This document shows positions 1 to 6,636 of a DNA stretch of 64,000 bases, in pieces. Below the pieces are notes generated by a model that was not told where the DNA came from, ran no database searches, and was given only the letters and a program-made list of their open reading frames with translations. Source of the stretch: Alphaproteobacteria bacterium. GTDB taxonomy: Bacteria; Pseudomonadota; Alphaproteobacteria; SP197. Where the stretch lies: positions 187,808 to 251,807 of the forward strand of contig CBDBNO010000012.1 in the NCBI GenBank assembly GCA_965207785.1, read 5' to 3'. The position numbers and the translations under genes were made by a program. Every line of letters begins with the position of its first letter. Position 1 is the first letter of the stretch.

Positions 1-85
1 ACGGTGGTCTTCGGTGCCGGGGGACATGGCCACATCTTCCCGTGTTGGTCCGTGGAAGCTGCGACCTTCGACGGTCCCGAGCCTC

Positions 86-733
86 TCACATAGTGCCGTC
101 GCGTGTTGGCGGCCCCGTCGTGCTCCGGGGACCCCGCGGGTGAACGGCGAATCCAACGGGACAGGGAAGATGGACAAGGTGGTCGCAGCCCAGCTCCCGC
201 ACGCACACAAGCGCCTCGCCGCACGCCAGGTGGCTGCGCAAACCGATCAGGCCCAGACACGTCGTGTCCAGCAGCACCGGGAACAGTCCGGCCAGGATCC
301 GCAGGCTCTGATGAACGCCGACAACCCGGCGGCGCAGCGACCGCCGCGCACTCGTCAGGTCAATCGCCTCGGGATAAAGCACTCGCACGCCCGCCCACAG
401 GCTGCCCGCTTCCTCGACCGCCACAACCTGCGCCTCGCACGAGGCAAGCGTCCCCGCAAGACGCGCCTGAAGACAGCCCGGCAGGGCGCTGAATGACCGG
501 TGGCAGGGGCGGCAATACCAACGCGCCACGCGCATGCCTCGCGGCGTCTTGCGCCCGTAGGTCCCGTTGCGCGTCATCCCGCAGGCCGTCACCGCCAGAC
601 CCCGGCAGCACACAGGAGGGGTTGCGGTGCGCCATGCCTCCTGCGCAACATAGTCCTCGGCGGACAACGTCGTCTCATCCAGATGCTGCAAACCTCCGCC
701 CGTGGCCCGGCGAGCGACAGTCGCGCGGGCCAC
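86..733 (-). other. Long minus-strand ORF of doubtful coding status; possible decayed transposase zinc-ribbon remnant
   Basis: The translation contains WYCRPCHRSFS and an upstream PPVCC motif, which resembles the N-terminal zinc ribbon of IS1595/ISXO2-type transposases. The rest is low-complexity. Three overlapping high-GC frames are open here. Confidence 0.15.
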
Positions 734-913
734 ACTCCTTCATGGACCCGCACCATGGTGCAGCAGAACCGACAGGCGGCCTATGCGGTCACCCGAAAAA
801 CACCCTGCTTGGAAAAGAAGAAGAGACCCTGGAGGCATCCGCACTCTCCCGGTCTCTCCGGGGAATCAGCACGGATCAATGTGGGAAAAGGCGGCCTCGG
901 CCGACCGGAACAA

Positions 914-1193
914 TCAGGGGTTCAACACGCGCGCGGCGAACAGCCACCCGCACAGACACCCCGCCAGCAGGAGCACGGCCGAAGCGAGGGTCGAGTCGGC
1001 GGCTCCCGCACCCGAGATCGCGAGAATGGCGCCGGCGACGAACATCAGGCGCGCAACGGGGAGCCGCCTTGCCTCCAGGGGCGCATTGGACCTTGCGCGG
1101 GCGAGCATCGGATACAGCAGTACCGCCAGCACCACTGCCTGCAAGGCGAACGACCAGAAGGCGAAGCGCCACAGGCCAGCGGTCGCGAACGCG
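914..1193 (-). pseudogene. MFS-type transporter gene, distal fragment (TM6 to about TM8), cut off from its 5' part by the IS
   Basis: The minus-frame translation ...AFATAGLWRFAFWSFALQAVVLAVLLY...AGAILAISGAGA... is made of TM-like helices. It continues in frame from the 4486..5000 fragment once the IS and one TSD copy are removed. The frame stops at 914 after about 270 residues, which is short for an MFS protein. Confidence 0.6.
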
Positions 1194-1262
1194 TGCAATA
1201 TTCCTGCACACTTGACGGTGATTCCTGGAACACTTGACGGCGAATCCTGCCGCACTTGACGG
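1194..1262. repeat. IS right-end (istB-distal) terminal repeat array, 3 copies of CACTTGACGG
   Basis: CACTTGACGG occurs at 1208-1217, 1231-1240 and 1253-1262, spaced about 22 bp apart. Multiple terminal repeats are typical of the IS21 family. Confidence 0.85.
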
Positions 1263-1597
1263 CTGAGGTGGCGCCATCTTCGTTCCCTTGTGCGCGTCTT
1301 GGGAGACCTCCCTGTTGGTTGGTTGGGTTGCTGGCCGGAGGCCAGCCGGGTGCGAGCGTATGCGAGCCATTTCTTCCATTCAACAGCCGGCGAACGCGGC
1401 GGCTGGCCCTTTCCTGAGGCATGGCCGCCGCGCGTTCCGGTCCTGGGAACGGCGCCCAGGCGCCGCAGGCGCCCATGGACCCGGCCGCCAGGCCGGGCTC
1501 GCTTGAGGGACCGTTGTCGGGAGGCGGCAACGCGAGAAGGCCGACCTGATGGTGCCGGGTGCCGGTGACGTTACCGCCCTCAACGGAGTTCTGCGGG

Positions 1598-1888
1598 TCA
1601 TGTGTCACGCCCGTAACCGAGCGGCGGATCGAGGTCCTCGAGGGTCTCGATGTCGGCCTCGGCCATGGCCTGCAGGCGCTCCCCGTAAGGGGTGTCGTGG
1701 AGCGTATCGGGAAGGGCGTCGAGGCAGCGGCGCCAGTGCTCCTGCAGGGCGATGAGTTCGGCCAGAGCATCGCGCCAGCGTTGCGCGCGCGAGCGCCGGT
1801 CCCGGGGCTTTCGGGTGATGACGGGACGGTGCCCGGCCTTGAGCCGTTCGCGGTATCGGCGCTGCTTCTCGGCGGGGGTCAGGGCCAT
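1598..1888 (-). CDS. Passenger ORF inside the IS, 96 aa, basic N-terminus and acidic C-terminus, unknown function
   Basis: The ATG lies 13 nt after the istB TGA, with a GGGGAG ribosome-binding site 7 nt upstream. Translation: MALTPAEKQRRYRERLKAGHRPVITRKPRDRRSRAQRWRDALAELIALQEHWRRCLDALPDTLHDTPYGERLQAMAEADIETLEDLDPPLGYGRDT. Confidence 0.55.
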   Translation of the reverse strand: MALTPAEKQRRYRERLKAGHRPVITRKPRDRRSRAQRWRDALAELIALQEHWRRCLDALPDTLHDTPYGERLQAMAEADIETLEDLDPPLGYGRDT

Positions 1889-1901
1889 GGCGGATCTCCC
1901 C

Positions 1902-2654
1902 TCATGCACCGCCCAGGGGCGGCGGCCGGTTGCGCTTGCGCTGGGATTCGCCGGTGATCTCGATGCGGTAGGCATTGTGGACGATGCGATCGAGGATGGC
2001 GTCGGCGATGGTGGGTTCGGCGATCACCCTGGGCCAGTGCTCCACGGGGATCTGACTGGCGATCAGCAGCGAGGCCCGGGCGTGGCGCTGCTCGACGATC
2101 TCGAGCAGGTCGCGGCGGCTCTCGGCGGAGAAGTTCTGCAGACCCCAGTCGTCGAGCAGCAGCAGCGAGACCCTGGCGAGCCGCCGCATGAGCCGGTAGT
2201 GCGTTCCCCTGTCGCGGGCGCGGGCGAGTTCGGAGACGAGTTCGGGCACGCGCCGGTAGAGCACGGATACCTTCTGGCGGCAGGCCTGATGAGCGAGGGC
2301 ACAGGCCAGGAAGGTCTTTCCGGATCCTGTTGGTCCGACGATGATCAGGTTGAAGGCCTGGCGGATCCAGTCGCCGGCGGCGAGTTCGGTCAGCGTGGTG
2401 CGCGTGATGCCGCGGCCGGCACGGCAGTCGACATCCTGGAGATCGGCGCGGATGCGCAGCTGGGCCTGGCGGAGGTGGCCGAGGTAGCTCTTGTGATCGC
2501 GGTACTGGACCTCGCGTTCGATCATCATGGCGAGGCGGTCGTCGAAGTCGAACTGATCGATGTCGGCGATGTCGCGCTGTTCCTCGAGGGCCTCGACCAT
2601 GCCGACGAAGCCGAGTTGCAGCAGGCGTTCGACATTGGGTTGACGCAGCGTCAT
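1902..2654 (-). CDS. istB: IS21-family helper ATPase IstB
   Basis: 250 aa with Walker A IIVGPTGSGKTFLACALA and Walker B LLLLDDWG. It overlaps the istA stop by 4 nt. Confidence 0.95.
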   Translation of the reverse strand: MTLRQPNVERLLQLGFVGMVEALEEQRDIADIDQFDFDDRLAMMIEREVQYRDHKSYLGHLRQAQLRIRADLQDVDCRAGRGITRTTLTELAAGDWIRQAFNLIIVGPTGSGKTFLACALAHQACRQKVSVLYRRVPELVSELARARDRGTHYRLMRRLARVSLLLLDDWGLQNFSAESRRDLLEIVEQRHARASLLIASQIPVEHWPRVIAEPTIADAILDRIVHNAYRIEITGESQRKRNRPPPLGGA

Positions 2655-4246
2655 GGGGTGTCTCCCTGGTTGTTGTCACGGTAGTAGTCCCCGCCCCTGA
2701 TGTTGCTGTGACGGGGGATGGTCTCGCGGACTTCCGGGCGTGGCGCCGGCGTCGGGATGCCGTTCCTGAGGCGCTCCCGGAGGAAGCCCGAGGCGAGGCG
2801 GTTGAGGTCGAGAGCCTCGCCACAGAGCGCCTCGAGGCGATCGGCGCCGTGGCCGTCGGCGAGACGGATCATGCCCTGCACGGTGGCGAAGGCCTGTTCG
2901 GGGAAGTCGCGGGAAGCGAAGCAGCGCTCGGCCCAGGCGAGGGCATGAGGTCCGATGCGCCGGGCCTGGGAGAGCAGGATGTTGCCCCAGTCGGGCTTGC
3001 GGATGTCGCGCACCGCCCGGAGGCGGTCGGGCATGTGTTCGGGGCTTGTGGCGTACTGGTTGGTGCCGCTCTTGAGACGGTGCACGGCGATGCGTTCGCC
3101 CTCCCTGGCGACGAAGATCTCGACCATGCGTTCGCCGACGCGGACGTCGACTTCGGCGCCGATATGGCGTTCGGGCGCGGAGTAGTGGTTGCTCTGGATT
3201 CGGACATGGCTGTTGGGTCCGACCTTGCGTTCGATCCATTCGCCCCATTCCCAGGGGTCCCGGGGCAGGGGCTTGAGAGCGGCCCGCTCGCTGGCCTCGA
3301 AGAGGTCGCGCCGGGTCGCGCCGCATGCCATCGGCGCCTCGTTCAGCTGTTCGAGCTGGCGCCGGATCGCGGCGTTCATGGCGTCCAGAGAGAAGAAGGT
3401 CTGATGACGCAGCGCGAGCAGGATACGCGTCTGGACGACACCGACGGCGGCCTCGACGGGGCCCTTGTCGGTGGATCGCCCCTTGCGTGCCGGAAGCACG
3501 GCGAGATCGTAGTGTTTGGCGAACTCGCGGAAGCTGGGGTTGAGCTGGGGATCCTCGCGGTCCGCCCTGGTGACGCCGGCCTTGAGGTTGTCGATGACCC
3601 AGCGCTCGGGACAGCCGCCGAACGCCTCCAGCGCCCGGCGGTGGGCCATCGTCCAGTATCGCACGCTCTGGTCGGGCACCGCCTCGGCGTGGATCAAGTT
3701 CGAATGCGCCAGCACGGCCACGAAGATCTCCACATCCTCATCGCCGCGGCCGCTCCTGAGGCTCAGGGTCTTGCCCGAGAAGTCGGACATGCCATAGAGG
3801 CCCGGCGCGTAGTCGAAGCGCGCCTGCGCCTGCCCGGGCCGTTCCTGCCGGCGCTTCTTGAGGAGCCCGCAGAAGCGGCTGTAGGTGTAGGCCCTGCCTC
3901 CTTGAGCCAGGGCCTCGTCGCGGTACTCGGACCACAGCTGACGACGCGTCAGGCGGGCGCGGCGGCGATCGCGCGGCGCCTCGAGTTCCTCGATGATCGC
4001 CTCCCAGTCGGGCTGCACCCGGTCGCTGTCGCGATCCGCCGCCGGATAAAGCCGGGCCCGCAGTGTGCCGTCGTCGAGATCCTCTGGCAGCGGCCAGGAA
4101 AGGCCTGCCGCCTCGCTGCGGGCCAGCACGTGCGAGACGGTTCCCGTGCTCACCCCGACCGCCACGGCGATCTCGTCCCGCGACAGGGCGTGATCGTGAC
4201 GGTGCCGAAGAATGTCCTTGATGTTCATCATGCCGATTCTCTTCAT
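2651..4246 (-). CDS. istA: IS21-family transposase IstA
   Basis: About 530 aa. It has an N-terminal HTH (ISRDEIAVAVGVSTGTVSHVL) and the DDE integrase core (DFSGKT...VLAHSNLIHAE...). The start is taken at MKRIGMMNIKDIL. Confidence 0.9.
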   Translation of the reverse strand: MKRIGMMNIKDILRHRHDHALSRDEIAVAVGVSTGTVSHVLARSEAAGLSWPLPEDLDDGTLRARLYPAADRDSDRVQPDWEAIIEELEAPRDRRRARLTRRQLWSEYRDEALAQGGRAYTYSRFCGLLKKRRQERPGQAQARFDYAPGLYGMSDFSGKTLSLRSGRGDEDVEIFVAVLAHSNLIHAEAVPDQSVRYWTMAHRRALEAFGGCPERWVIDNLKAGVTRADREDPQLNPSFREFAKHYDLAVLPARKGRSTDKGPVEAAVGVVQTRILLALRHQTFFSLDAMNAAIRRQLEQLNEAPMACGATRRDLFEASERAALKPLPRDPWEWGEWIERKVGPNSHVRIQSNHYSAPERHIGAEVDVRVGERMVEIFVAREGERIAVHRLKSGTNQYATSPEHMPDRLRAVRDIRKPDWGNILLSQARRIGPHALAWAERCFASRDFPEQAFATVQGMIRLADGHGADRLEALCGEALDLNRLASGFLRERLRNGIPTPAPRPEVRETIPRHSNIRGGDYYRDNNQGDTP

Positions 4247-4374
4247 CGCGCTCTTGCCTTCCGGTTCGATACGCGAACCGGTCTGACAGGGATGGAAGAG
4301 ACAGGGCACCTCGGAGATCCCGCTGGCCGCCTCGCCACGCCGCTCGGCAGGGCAGGGTCAGGCTCGGACCAGGA

Positions 4375-4485
4375 CCGTCAAATGCTCAGGATTCGCCGTC
4401 AAGTGTCCAGGAATCACCGTCAAGTGTTCCAGGAATCGCCGTCAAATGTCGTAGGAATCGCCGTCAAATGCGCCAGGATTTTGCA
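4375..4485. repeat. IS left-end (istA-proximal) terminal repeat array, 5 copies of CCGTCAA[A/G]TG
   Basis: Copies sit at 4375, 4396, 4417, 4439 and 4461, at 21-22 bp spacing. They are the reverse complement of the 1208..1262 array. Confidence 0.85.
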
Positions 4486-5000
4486 AACGCGCCACCGATG
4501 AGCGGTCCACTGAGCGCGGAGGCCGTCCATGTCAGTGAAAGACATGCAACAACTCTGGGTACGAGTCGATCCGGGAAGAAGCGGTTCTGGGCGATGAAGA
4601 CCAGGGCGACCAACGCTCCGCCGCCGAGTCCCTGCACCGTGCGGCCTGCAAGCAGGACCGGCATCGCCGGCGCCGCCGCGCACGCGATGCATCCGAACGT
4701 GTAAAGCAGCGTCGAAGCCAGCATGGCACGGCGCAGCCCGGCCCGCGCCACGAAGGCGCTCGCCGCCGCTGCGGCCATGACCGAGCCCATCAGGTAAAGG
4801 GCAAATGCCCAGCTGATGAGGCGCAGACCGCCGATATCTCCGATCGCCTCCGGGAGGGTCGTCGCTGCCAGCAACGTGTTGGCCGCATGCAACCAGATCG
4901 CCAGGCACATCACGAGCAGCAGGGGCAGGTGCCGGCGCGCCACCACCTCGCGCCAGCTGACGGACTGCGGATCCGGACCCGGCCGCGCGTTCTCCTGCAT
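4486..5000 (-). pseudogene. MFS-type transporter gene, 5' fragment (TM1-TM5), interrupted by the IS21-family element
   Basis: Translation MQENARPGP...LLLVMCLAIWLHAANTLL... shows MFS motif A-like VARAGLRRAML and TM4 motif RTVQGLGGGAL. It is transcribed divergently from soxR. Confidence 0.7.
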
Positions 5001-5041
5001 GGCGATTCTCCCGTTGCGATGCGCCTGAAGGTGATGCTAGA

Positions 5042-5061
5042 ACTTCAAGTAAACTTGAAGT
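5042..5061. promoter_or_regulatory. SoxR box (8-4-8 palindrome ACTTCAAG-TAAA-CTTGAAGT) in the soxR/transporter divergent promoter
   Basis: This is a perfect inverted repeat in the 68-bp intergenic region. It resembles the canonical CCTCAAG-TTAA-CTTGAGG soxbox. Confidence 0.75.
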
Positions 5062-5068
5062 CAAGCCC

Positions 5069-5551
5069 ATGCAGACCACGCGTTGGCAGAAAACCAGCCT
5101 CTCGATCGGCGACGTCGCCCGACGCACGGGACTCGCCACGTCGGCGCTCCGCTTCTACGAGGAAATGGCGCTGATCGAGTCGCTGCGCACGCCGGGCAAT
5201 CAGAGGCGCTATGCGCGTGACGTGATTCGACGGGTTTCGTTCATCCGTGCCGCGCAACGGGTGGGCCTGACACTCGAGGAGGTGCGCGCAATGCTCGACG
5301 ACCTGCCCGCGGGCCGGTCCCCGACCCGCCGGGACTGGCAGGAGCTTGCAAGACGCTGGAAACCATGGCTCGACGAACGGATCGCCGCCCTCGAACGCTT
5401 GCGGGACCAGCTTTCGTCATGCATCGGTTGCGGCTGCCTGTCGCTCGACAGCTGTGCTCTCTACAACCGCGGTGATGCCGCCGGCCGCCTGGGCCCCGGT
5501 CCGCGTTACCTTCTGGGCGATTCTCCTGAGGATCTCCAGACCCGGAATTGA
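5069..5551 (+). CDS. soxR: Redox-sensitive MerR-family transcriptional activator SoxR
   Basis: It has a MerR HTH (IGDVARRTGLATSALRFYEE) and the C-terminal [2Fe-2S] cysteine motif CIGCGCLSLDSCALYN. Confidence 0.9.
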   Translation: MQTTRWQKTSLSIGDVARRTGLATSALRFYEEMALIESLRTPGNQRRYARDVIRRVSFIRAAQRVGLTLEEVRAMLDDLPAGRSPTRRDWQELARRWKPWLDERIAALERLRDQLSSCIGCGCLSLDSCALYNRGDAAGRLGPGPRYLLGDSPEDLQTRN

Positions 5552-5618
5552 GCGAAAAGTGCATGGTGGAGCCCGCGCCCTCACGGACGACTGTCGCTCT
5601 CATCCTGGTGAGACCGGC

Positions 5619-6008
5619 TCAGGGGTCGGGCGGAAGGAACGAGCTTTCGTCGCGCAGCGAACAGCGGTTTCCGTCCGGGTCGACGAAGTCGCCGACGGTT
5701 CCCCAGGTCTCCCGTCTGACGACGACGCGCACGCCGCGCGCCTCCAAAAGACGGGCGGCAGCATCGACATCGGCAACGTTGAACCTCAGCTTGACCGGGC
5801 TTTGCTCGATGGATCGCCCGCCCGGCATCGCCGTTCCGCCGGTTTCGACCATCAGGTAACTCCCGCCCATGTCCAGGCAGGTCAGCGTGGAATGCTCGTC
5901 ATCGAGCGAGAACATCTCCGGCAGTCCCAGAATCCGGCGGTAGAAGTCGACACACTCTTCGTACTGCTCGGTGAACACGATGACGCCGCTTCGCTTCAGG
6001 TCCATCAT
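5619..6008 (-). CDS. VOC-family protein (glyoxalase / bleomycin-resistance-like), 129 aa
   Basis: The single-domain VOC pattern (...CVDFYRRILGLPE...LRFNVADVDAAARLLEARGVRVV...GDFVDPDGNR...) is present. It lies in the lower-GC islet. Confidence 0.7.
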   Translation of the reverse strand: MMDLKRSGVIVFTEQYEECVDFYRRILGLPEMFSLDDEHSTLTCLDMGGSYLMVETGGTAMPGGRSIEQSPVKLRFNVADVDAAARLLEARGVRVVVRRETWGTVGDFVDPDGNRCSLRDESSFLPPDP

Positions 6009-6234
6009 GGACTTCTCCCTGTCCCCGCCTCCGCCACTCGCCCCTGATTCGTCCGGACGCGGTTGACGCCTCCTGCGTCCCTCAGACGCTCAAGGATCCT
6101 CATCTGCCATCACTGATCCACGACCGCGCCGTTCTGCCGCTGCCGTATGCGAGACTGGCATTCCCCGGCAGACACGGCCCAATTCGCCTCGGGGCGAAAC
6201 CAACTGCGTTTCACCGAAATGAGAAGTGAACGAC

Positions 6235-6636
6235 TCAAGATGGCCGATGGGATGCGGCGCGCCGGACGCGAAAGATCGAATGGGCAGTAGCGGTCCGTAG
6301 CGTGGATACACGTACCCGGCGATCTCGGTGGTGGAAAGTGAAGTCGTCGATGCATGCATGCGAAATGAATCCGCCGTCAATGTCCCCCGCCGTGCCGTCC
6401 CGCATCGCCTGGGACAGGAAACGGGCGATGCGCTGCGTAAGGCTTTGGTTGGTTCCGGTTCCCTCGCCGCCCAAAGGAAGTGTGCGGACAAGATTGTGAT
6501 TCGGATACTCCTCGGCAAAGCGTATGGCGATCTGATACGCAGACATGAACGGGCGGTCGAGAGGGTGATCGGCTTCGTACTCTGGACAGCTCGCCAGAAT
6601 CCGGCGCAGATGATCAATATTGAAGTCGCGTCTCAT
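6235..6636 (-). CDS. Hypothetical protein, about 105-133 aa, no recognisable family
   Basis: The ORF is MRRDFNIDHLRRILASCPEYEADHPLDRPFMSAYQIAIRFAEEYPNHNLVRTLPLGGEGTGTNQSLTQRIARFLSQAMRDGTAGDIDGGFISHACIDDFTFHH... The C-terminal roughly 30 codons are Arg-rich and may not be real. A competing frame (6090..6617) overlaps it. Confidence 0.4.
   Translation of the reverse strand: MRRDFNIDHLRRILASCPEYEADHPLDRPFMSAYQIAIRFAEEYPNHNLVRTLPLGGEGTGTNQSLTQRIARFLSQAMRDGTAGDIDGGFISHACIDDFTFHHRDRRVRVSTLRTATAHSIFRVRRAASHRPS

Follow-up and report, generated by a model that had tools for sequence, protein, structure and literature searches.

The 64-kb stretch of alphaproteobacterial DNA analysed here (contig CBDBNO010000012.1, positions 187,808 to 251,807; hereafter the window) contains, at positions 1194..4485, a complete insertion sequence (IS) of the IS21 family. 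The element is 3,292 bp long, has its genes on the minus strand, and is delimited by TG...CA termini, by inverted repeats (IRs), by a flanking duplication and by the empty site of a related scaffold, L001. It carries the transposase gene istA, the helper gene istB and a third, small gene, here called orf3, which is followed by a conserved non-coding tail; the element is complete and apparently functional. It lies inside an efflux-type transporter gene of the major facilitator superfamily (MFS) that is divergent from soxR, and a foreign segment adjoins the far end of the transporter gene. The original prediction, made from the window alone, had recognised the IS, its duplication and the interrupted transporter gene; it overlooked the 3' truncation of the transporter gene, orf3 and the conserved tail, none of which overturns its reading.

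On the forward strand the element starts at 1194 with TGCAATATTCCTGCACACTTGACGG and extends up to 4485 with ...CCGTCAAATGCGCCAGGATTTTGCA, the reverse complement of which is TGCAAAATCCTGGCGCATTTGACGG; the sequence TGCA is present at each end. The IR arms (1194-1262 and 4417-4485) are 69 nt long and imperfect, being 78% complementary. They are built around the repeat CAYTTGACGG, which is found eight times in the window, all eight times inside the element, against 0.24 matches expected from shuffled sequences, none of which reached eight. Three copies are located on the plus strand, at 1209, 1231 and 1253, and five on the minus strand, at 4375, 4396, 4417, 4439 and 4461, with an overall spacing of 21-22 bp. 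Read in the direction of the genes, the five copies make up the left, istA-proximal terminal IR region (4375..4485, minus strand), whose arm proper is 4417-4485, and the right terminal IR (1194..1262, minus strand) contains three CACTTGACGG repeats 22 bp apart. The CAYTTGACGG repeats are presumed to be the binding sites of IstA. The original prediction had assigned three and five copies of one sub-terminal repeat to the two ends; the counts were right, and the wording has to be corrected, as the five-copy end consists of two exact CACTTGACGG and three CATTTGACGG.

The hexamer AACGCG directly flanks the element as two copies, at 1188..1193 and at 4486..4491. When positions 1194..4491 are deleted, a single minus-strand open reading frame (ORF) of 262 aa is obtained, which reads ...SGPLIGGAF|ATAGLWRFAFW... 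across the junction. A search with the MFS protein returned 115 relatives, and in an alignment with 11 orthologues both transporter halves are colinear with single proteins, the junction-spanning segment GPLIGGAFATAGLWRFAFW being gap-free and almost invariant. The closest relative, P0001 (89% identity), is encoded on the 57.7-kb metagenome scaffold L001, which shares the glyoxalase-soxR-MFS synteny. At the DNA level, window positions 6131..4486 correspond to L001 1..1644 (90.7% identity) and window positions 1193..934 to L001 1639..1898, so that the alignments share exactly six bases of L001. In the three-way alignment L001 has one CGCGTT (AACGCG on the opposite strand) at this site, at positions 1639-1644. 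The search for an uninterrupted site that the original prediction had proposed was therefore successful, and what had been read from the window was reproduced by the relative: the ends at 1194 and 4485 are exact to the base, AACGCG is a genuine 6-bp duplication, and the two transporter halves form one frame that is continuous with the orthologues.

The istA gene (2651..4246, minus strand) encodes a DDE transposase of 531 aa, a length that is the same in its relatives; its ATG at 4246 is preceded by GGAAGG, and the open frame reaches a GTG at 4309. The protein scores 241.3 bits against the NCBIfam model NF033546 (transpos_IS21, cut-off 160), and contains the Pfam domains rve and Mu-transpos_C_2. 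In its alignment to the solved IstA of IS5376 (8q4d, 8b4h), SDF, IDN and GPVE stand where the latter has its catalytic motifs VDW, FDN and GKVE. The istB gene (1902..2654, minus strand) encodes an AAA+ helper ATPase of 250 aa, which matches PF01695 (E 9.8e-62), NF038214 (IstB helper ATPase, 243.4 bits, cut-off 200) and the IS5376 IstB 8q3w; its Walker A and Walker B motifs read GPTGSGKT and LLLLDD. The istA stop codon and the istB ATG overlap as ATGA at 2651-2654. Both genes, which had been described as intact, are full-length with their DDE and Walker motifs, and the family assignment holds on the two NCBIfam scores, the ATGA overlap, the TG...CA termini and the multi-repeat IRs. The N-terminus of IstA (4228-4246, minus strand) reads MKRIGMMNIKD and thus offers three in-frame Met codons, the first, sixth and seventh. 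IS21 yields two forms of IstA through alternative in-frame starts, of which these Met codons may be reminiscent. A megablast search of the IS against the PLSDB plasmids gave only 50-70-bp patches of istB and no close relative, and a promoter and terminator scan revealed nothing above chance.

Target-site duplications of the IS21 family are 4-8 bp long. The element has an IstA-type DDE transposase with IstB directly downstream, TG...CA termini with multi-repeat IRs, and a short duplication of 6 bp. The family has been described by two consecutive overlapping ORFs, IRs made of several repeats and a terminal CA (PMC10122671, PMC4608216); the window element departs from the two-ORF organisation in that a third conserved ORF, orf3, is located inside its IRs. 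The two-ORF layout is descriptive of the prototypes and is not a catalytic criterion, so the element is an IS21 variant and its membership stands. With IS21 and IS5376 (8b4h, 8q4d, 8q3w) it shares the order of a DDE istA and an AAA+ istB with overlapping stop and start, the TG...CA termini, the IRs built of several direct repeats and the short duplication, whereas its IstA is only locally similar to that of IS5376 (44 bits). The prototypes have L1/L2 and R1/R2 repeats (PMC10122671) as opposed to five and three repeats here, and the window element reaches 3.29 kb owing to its third gene and the ~250-bp conserved tail. ISMyo2 and ordinary two-gene members (~2.4 kb) have the same gene order, overlapping istA and istB and multiple IR copies at their ends, but possess two ORFs only, without an orf3 inside the IRs.

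The insertion can be pictured by analogy with the mechanism of IS21, treated in PMC10122671 and PMC11208146. According to the IS21/IS5376 model, IstA tetramers would bind the 22-bp-spaced CAYTTGACGG repeats in both IRs and synapse the ends, after which IstA would cleave at the terminal CA-3'. The target DNA would be captured and bent by decamers of the AAA+ ATPase IstB, and strand transfer staggered by six bases would give rise to the duplication upon repair. The IS integrated between codons 172 and 173 of the SoxR-linked MFS gene, duplicating AACGCG.

The 5' fragment of the interrupted MFS gene (4486..5000, minus strand) comprises codons 1-172, matches PF07690 (MFS_1) and is colinear with the orthologues. 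In the 3' fragment (914..1193, minus strand) the homology to the orthologues stops at ~934, and the gene ends with four codons (VLNP) and a stop of foreign origin. The rejoined protein of 262 aa, compared with ~450 aa in full-length orthologues, is cut at about codon 258 and spans positions 1-150 of MFS_1 and roughly two further helices, which falls short of the full fold of 12-14 transmembrane helices. The MFS gene is accordingly a truncated remnant whose 3' 40% is missing or displaced. Its closest orthologues are damaged as well: the MFS gene of L001 (1130-2540) has a stop where the orthologues have W327, its frame being otherwise open; that of L127 (5001-6471) combines a frameshift with a stop in place of W262; and that of L126 (5001-7266) includes an additional DUF772 (IS5-like) transposase gene. 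Because the closest orthologues carry independent nonsense or frameshift mutations, the soxR-linked efflux pump appears to be under relaxed selection, and the locus to be decaying throughout the clade. The IS may well have landed in a dispensable or already dead gene, as a neutral insertion in a pseudogene and not as the inactivation of a working SoxR-controlled pump. The second junction near 930, which ends the window protein at 262 aa, and the three independently broken orthologues speak for this, whereas the two fragments are still in frame and keep every invariant residue of the alignment, so that decay is not advanced, and either the IS or the loss of the 3' part may have come first. We give this possibility even odds; it is compatible with the insertion of a complete IS21-family element as such.

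The third gene of the element, orf3 (1598..1888, minus strand), encodes a conserved small protein of 96 aa. It starts 14 nt past the istB stop behind the Shine-Dalgarno sequence GGGGAGA, and is probably co-transcribed with istA and istB. More than 348 homologues were found, mostly of 93-107 aa, and a profile search (E <= 1e-3, 1.84 billion representatives, clusters at 50% identity) returned 2,043 clusters, almost all of which are short stand-alone proteins. The invariant parts of the alignment are AE.Q.RYR, DRRSRPQRWRDAV and a C-terminal PPxGYGRD; the latter follows a basic N-terminus and an acidic helical core. The AlphaFold model is all-helical and confident (pLDDT, the predicted local distance difference test score, of 85), and the ratio of nonsynonymous to synonymous substitution rates (dN/dS) between copies is 0.36-0.44. 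As far as sequence comparison can tell, orf3 is a real, selected gene. A literature search, with ISfinder outside its scope, found no description of a third IS21 gene or passenger or of the Orf3 family, and a tblastn search of Orf3 against plasmids gave no match.

Within the IS lineage of the window, orf3 is carried only by the window element and by the copies in the genome OY763008.1. In CBDCRU01, copies of a sister element with 93% nucleotide identity (L005, L007 and L029, ~6355-6395) keep the orf3 Shine-Dalgarno sequence and the first 32 nt, followed by a deletion of ~350 bp, and the IS relatives of 80% identity have no trace of the gene. The CBDCRU01 element thus amounts to a knock-out of orf3 made by nature, which nevertheless transposed and is found at three sites. 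As the deleted copies spread to these sites, orf3 is dispensable in cis for transposition, although it may have been supplied in trans. The gene was additionally located inside the terminal IRs of three further, distant IS21-type elements (L104, L121 and L098). A second orf3 copy in L002 is 85-88% identical to that of the window at the nucleotide level and stands behind an istB that is only 40% identical at the amino acid level, the homology between the two copies being confined almost exactly to the ORF, which implies that orf3 has been exchanged between elements. L002 also contains a nested arrangement (OY763008.1, L002 2707-8633), in which an IS of the window type sits in a different IS21-family element, between the istA and istB of its host. 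The host element, too, carries an orf3, which follows its istB.

Orf3 is not restricted to the IS21 family. The same-strand upstream neighbour of orf3 could be extracted for 72 of 80 metagenome loci, and 47 of the 72 neighbours are mobile-DNA enzymes belonging to at least six families: IstB (24), IS110 transposase (9), IS66 TnpB (4), IS3 OrfB (3), an HTH_29 protein of ~450 aa (3), IS256/Mutator (2), a resolvase (1) and an HNH nuclease (1). One identical Orf3 occurs in an IS3-type unit composed of orfA, orfB, orf3 and a gene for a 252-aa protein (L161-L168), with at least eight different flanks. The 252-aa gene overlaps orf3 and has a faint HTH_36 match. The idea that the window IS keeps the rest of a larger passenger was rejected, as no remnant of this gene was found in it. 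Another Orf3 (L158-L160) belongs to a multi-copy unit in which a 120-aa ORF, orf3 and a 54-aa ORF precede the gene of a 740-aa large serine recombinase. Distant relatives encoded on large phage contigs (L134-L157, IMG/VR) are 75-258 aa long and share the core ...EY.EW.DNLPENL..S.LGEKL... and an invariant terminal LPLGFGRD. Their surroundings are replication and recombination genes (clamp-loader, exonuclease, Sak4, topoisomerase and HNH genes), none of which is a constant partner.

Insertion sequences that carry passengers (tIS) and three-gene elements such as IS66 (tnpA-tnpB-tnpC) are known. They resemble the window element in having a non-transposase gene between their ends; unlike them, the passenger is here one small protein family shared by IS21, IS110, IS66, IS3, IS256 and large-serine-recombinase elements and by phages. 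The carriers of Orf3 thus comprise DDE, DEDD and serine-recombinase elements as well as phages, and as the family rides on elements of unrelated chemistries, the most likely target of the protein is the host, or else nucleic acids at large, an indication that is weak as to its actual function; a role in the chemistry of transposition itself is less likely. The basic N-terminus, the acidic helices and the invariant C-terminal peptide make it plausible that Orf3 is directed at the host or binds nucleic acids. The best reading of these comparisons is that orf3 is a selected passenger or accessory gene whose function is independent of transposition chemistry. In its widest form, we propose only tentatively that Orf3 is an undescribed, very widespread family of mobile-element proteins, recruited repeatedly by IS21, IS110, IS66, IS3, IS256 and large serine recombinase elements, and carried by temperate or lytic phages in their replication-recombination modules, as a chemistry-independent, host-directed accessory factor. 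On this view its invariant C-terminal PPxG(Y/F)GRD could, for instance, dock on a component of host replication or repair, or Orf3 could act against the response of the host to mobile DNA.

A less probable explanation takes orf3 for a self-contained selfish cassette, or for a passenger picked up at random, inserted or recombined 3' of transposase genes without any benefit to the IS. The L002 copy, with homology ending almost exactly at the ORF behind an unrelated istB, agrees with such a cassette, as do the transposition of copies that lack orf3 and its complete absence from the 80%-identical relatives. A 96-aa all-helical protein has, on the other hand, no plausible recombinase activity, orf3 is not visibly bordered by repeats or recombination sites, and purifying selection together with recurrent carriage by many types of element argues that the gene pays its way. 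We consequently regard the cassette as improbable and prefer the accessory gene.

The activity of the IS lineage was evaluated from relatives of IstA, scanned in one genome per species; 41 loci were obtained, nearly all in long-read metagenome-assembled genomes labelled 'Alphaproteobacteria bacterium'. OY763008.1 has three copies of 3,339 bp, mutually 100% identical, with the duplications AGGGG, CGCAGCC and CCCAGGA; their identity to the window element is 93%. CBDCRU01 has three orf3-deleted copies of 2,948 bp, mutually 99.93-99.97% identical, with the duplications ACGGAT, TGTGGG and TACATC. Because near-identical copies carry different duplications of 5-7 bp in related genomes, the lineage has been active recently. 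Additionally, exact matches in public assemblies were found for IstB on six contigs, for Orf3 on six and for IstA on two; one contig with an exact protein match (1.10 Mb) also encodes the same SoxR, and a 99.2% identical fragment of the window element is present in a different metagenome. The suggestion that the insertion is recent and the element probably still active is in this way supported, if indirectly, by the full-length ORFs with their motifs, by the exact IstB matches and by the sister copies, and we consider it well supported by these sequences.

It is quite unlikely that the element is a recently immobilised fossil, with ORFs that look intact and transposition lost. The window has a single copy, the IRs are only 78% complementary and exact IstA was found on two contigs only; imperfect multi-repeat IRs are nevertheless normal for IS21, the ORFs are full-length with catalytic motifs, the duplication is perfect, exact IstB and Orf3 each occur on six contigs, and identical copies lie at different sites in sister lineages. 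That the flanking AACGCG is a chance match and that the real boundaries lie elsewhere can be dismissed, because, even though a 6-bp match at a fixed pair of positions in GC-rich DNA has a probability of ~1e-3 to 1e-4, the uninterrupted site of L001 holds exactly one AACGCG with the alignments meeting at the predicted bases, and the IS relatives share the TGCA termini, each with its own 5-7-bp repeats.

Altogether, we assign a probability of about 0.9 to the core reading, namely an IS21-family element with a true 6-bp target duplication that belongs to a recent, probably active lineage. Three observations weigh against the interpretation given here of the element, its third gene and its insertion. 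In length the element exceeds typical two-gene members of the family, such as ISMyo2 (2,387 bp), by 0.7-0.9 kb, an excess made up of orf3 and the ~250-bp tail. Most of the close IS relatives are without orf3. Finally, Orf3 has no Pfam, NCBIfam or PADLOC match and no informative fold or family match to anything characterised.

The soxR gene (5069..5551, plus strand), which is divergent from the MFS gene, codes for a redox-sensing activator of the MerR family. Its product scores 201.8 bits against TIGR01950 (cut-off 116.9) and contains the CX2CXCX5C [2Fe-2S] motif CIGCGCLSLDSC, so that the description of the host as an efflux-type gene divergent from a true SoxR was correct. The soxR-MFS intergenic region includes the palindrome ACTTCAAGT-AA-ACTTGAAGT (5042..5061), which resembles the SoxR-box consensus, CCTCAAGTTAACTTGAGG, and is likely a SoxR box. 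With a [2Fe-2S] SoxR, a divergent target gene and a palindromic putative box, the region has the predicted make-up of a SoxR regulon locus. The genes of the IS point in the same direction as the MFS promoter that SoxR would activate and, speculatively, redox stress could drive read-through into istA.

The non-coding tail between orf3 and the right IR (1263..1515, minus strand, ~250 bp) was compared in L002, L005, L006, L008, L011, L025, L031 and L033. It contains several GC hairpins, for instance CCCGGCCTGGCGGCCGGG, GGCGCCTGCGGCGCC and GCTGGCCTCCGGCCAGC, which are almost invariant, whereas the rest of the IS is only 73-93% identical. A structured RNA is not supported, as the nearly invariant hairpins display little covariation, and an Rfam scan of window positions 1..5200 gave only a sub-threshold chance match to mir-941, with none for the tail. 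A fourth ORF (1380..1601), which overlaps the orf3 stop as ATGA, was considered and rejected; it is rich in Pro, Arg and Ala, and L002 has an insertion of ~47 nt there.

The segment that adjoins the truncated MFS gene (1..933, minus strand) is foreign, the DNA homology of the MFS gene to L001 ending at ~934. It contains an ORF (86..733, minus strand) for a Cys-rich protein of 215 aa, which is 33-39% identical to unannotated or hypothetical ORFs in pMLa and pANTQ-1. Those homologues are located directly upstream of three tandem tyrosine recombinases (ritA-ritB-ritC), the organisation of recombinase-in-trio (RIT) elements, and two RIT copies have been reported in M. loti MAFF303099 (PMC3414803). 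At its left edge the window probably contains the terminal part of a RIT-type element, which truncated the transporter gene. This segment resembles RIT elements in the ORF whose homologues precede ritA-ritB-ritC trios, and differs from them in that only this upstream accessory ORF lies in the window, where the recombinase trio would fall beyond the left edge. No repeat of the left 940 bp was found, either elsewhere in the window or in the fetched loci.

The insertion itself is routine; it adds to the IS21 family a well-delimited new element with a proven empty site, whose hosts, judged by sample and record names, are apparently Alphaproteobacteria associated with marine sponges, and the locus adds a SoxR-linked efflux gene that has been decaying repeatedly in the clade. 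What deserves the attention of specialists is orf3, as one selected and unannotated family is found inside the ends of distant IS21 elements, with at least four other IS families and in phages. The question is open to experiment, since nature provides two elements of 93% identity, of which one has orf3 and the other lacks it. Should Orf3 prove to modulate either the host or how well the element persists, it would constitute a shared accessory module of mobile DNA, so far annotated only as 'hypothetical'.

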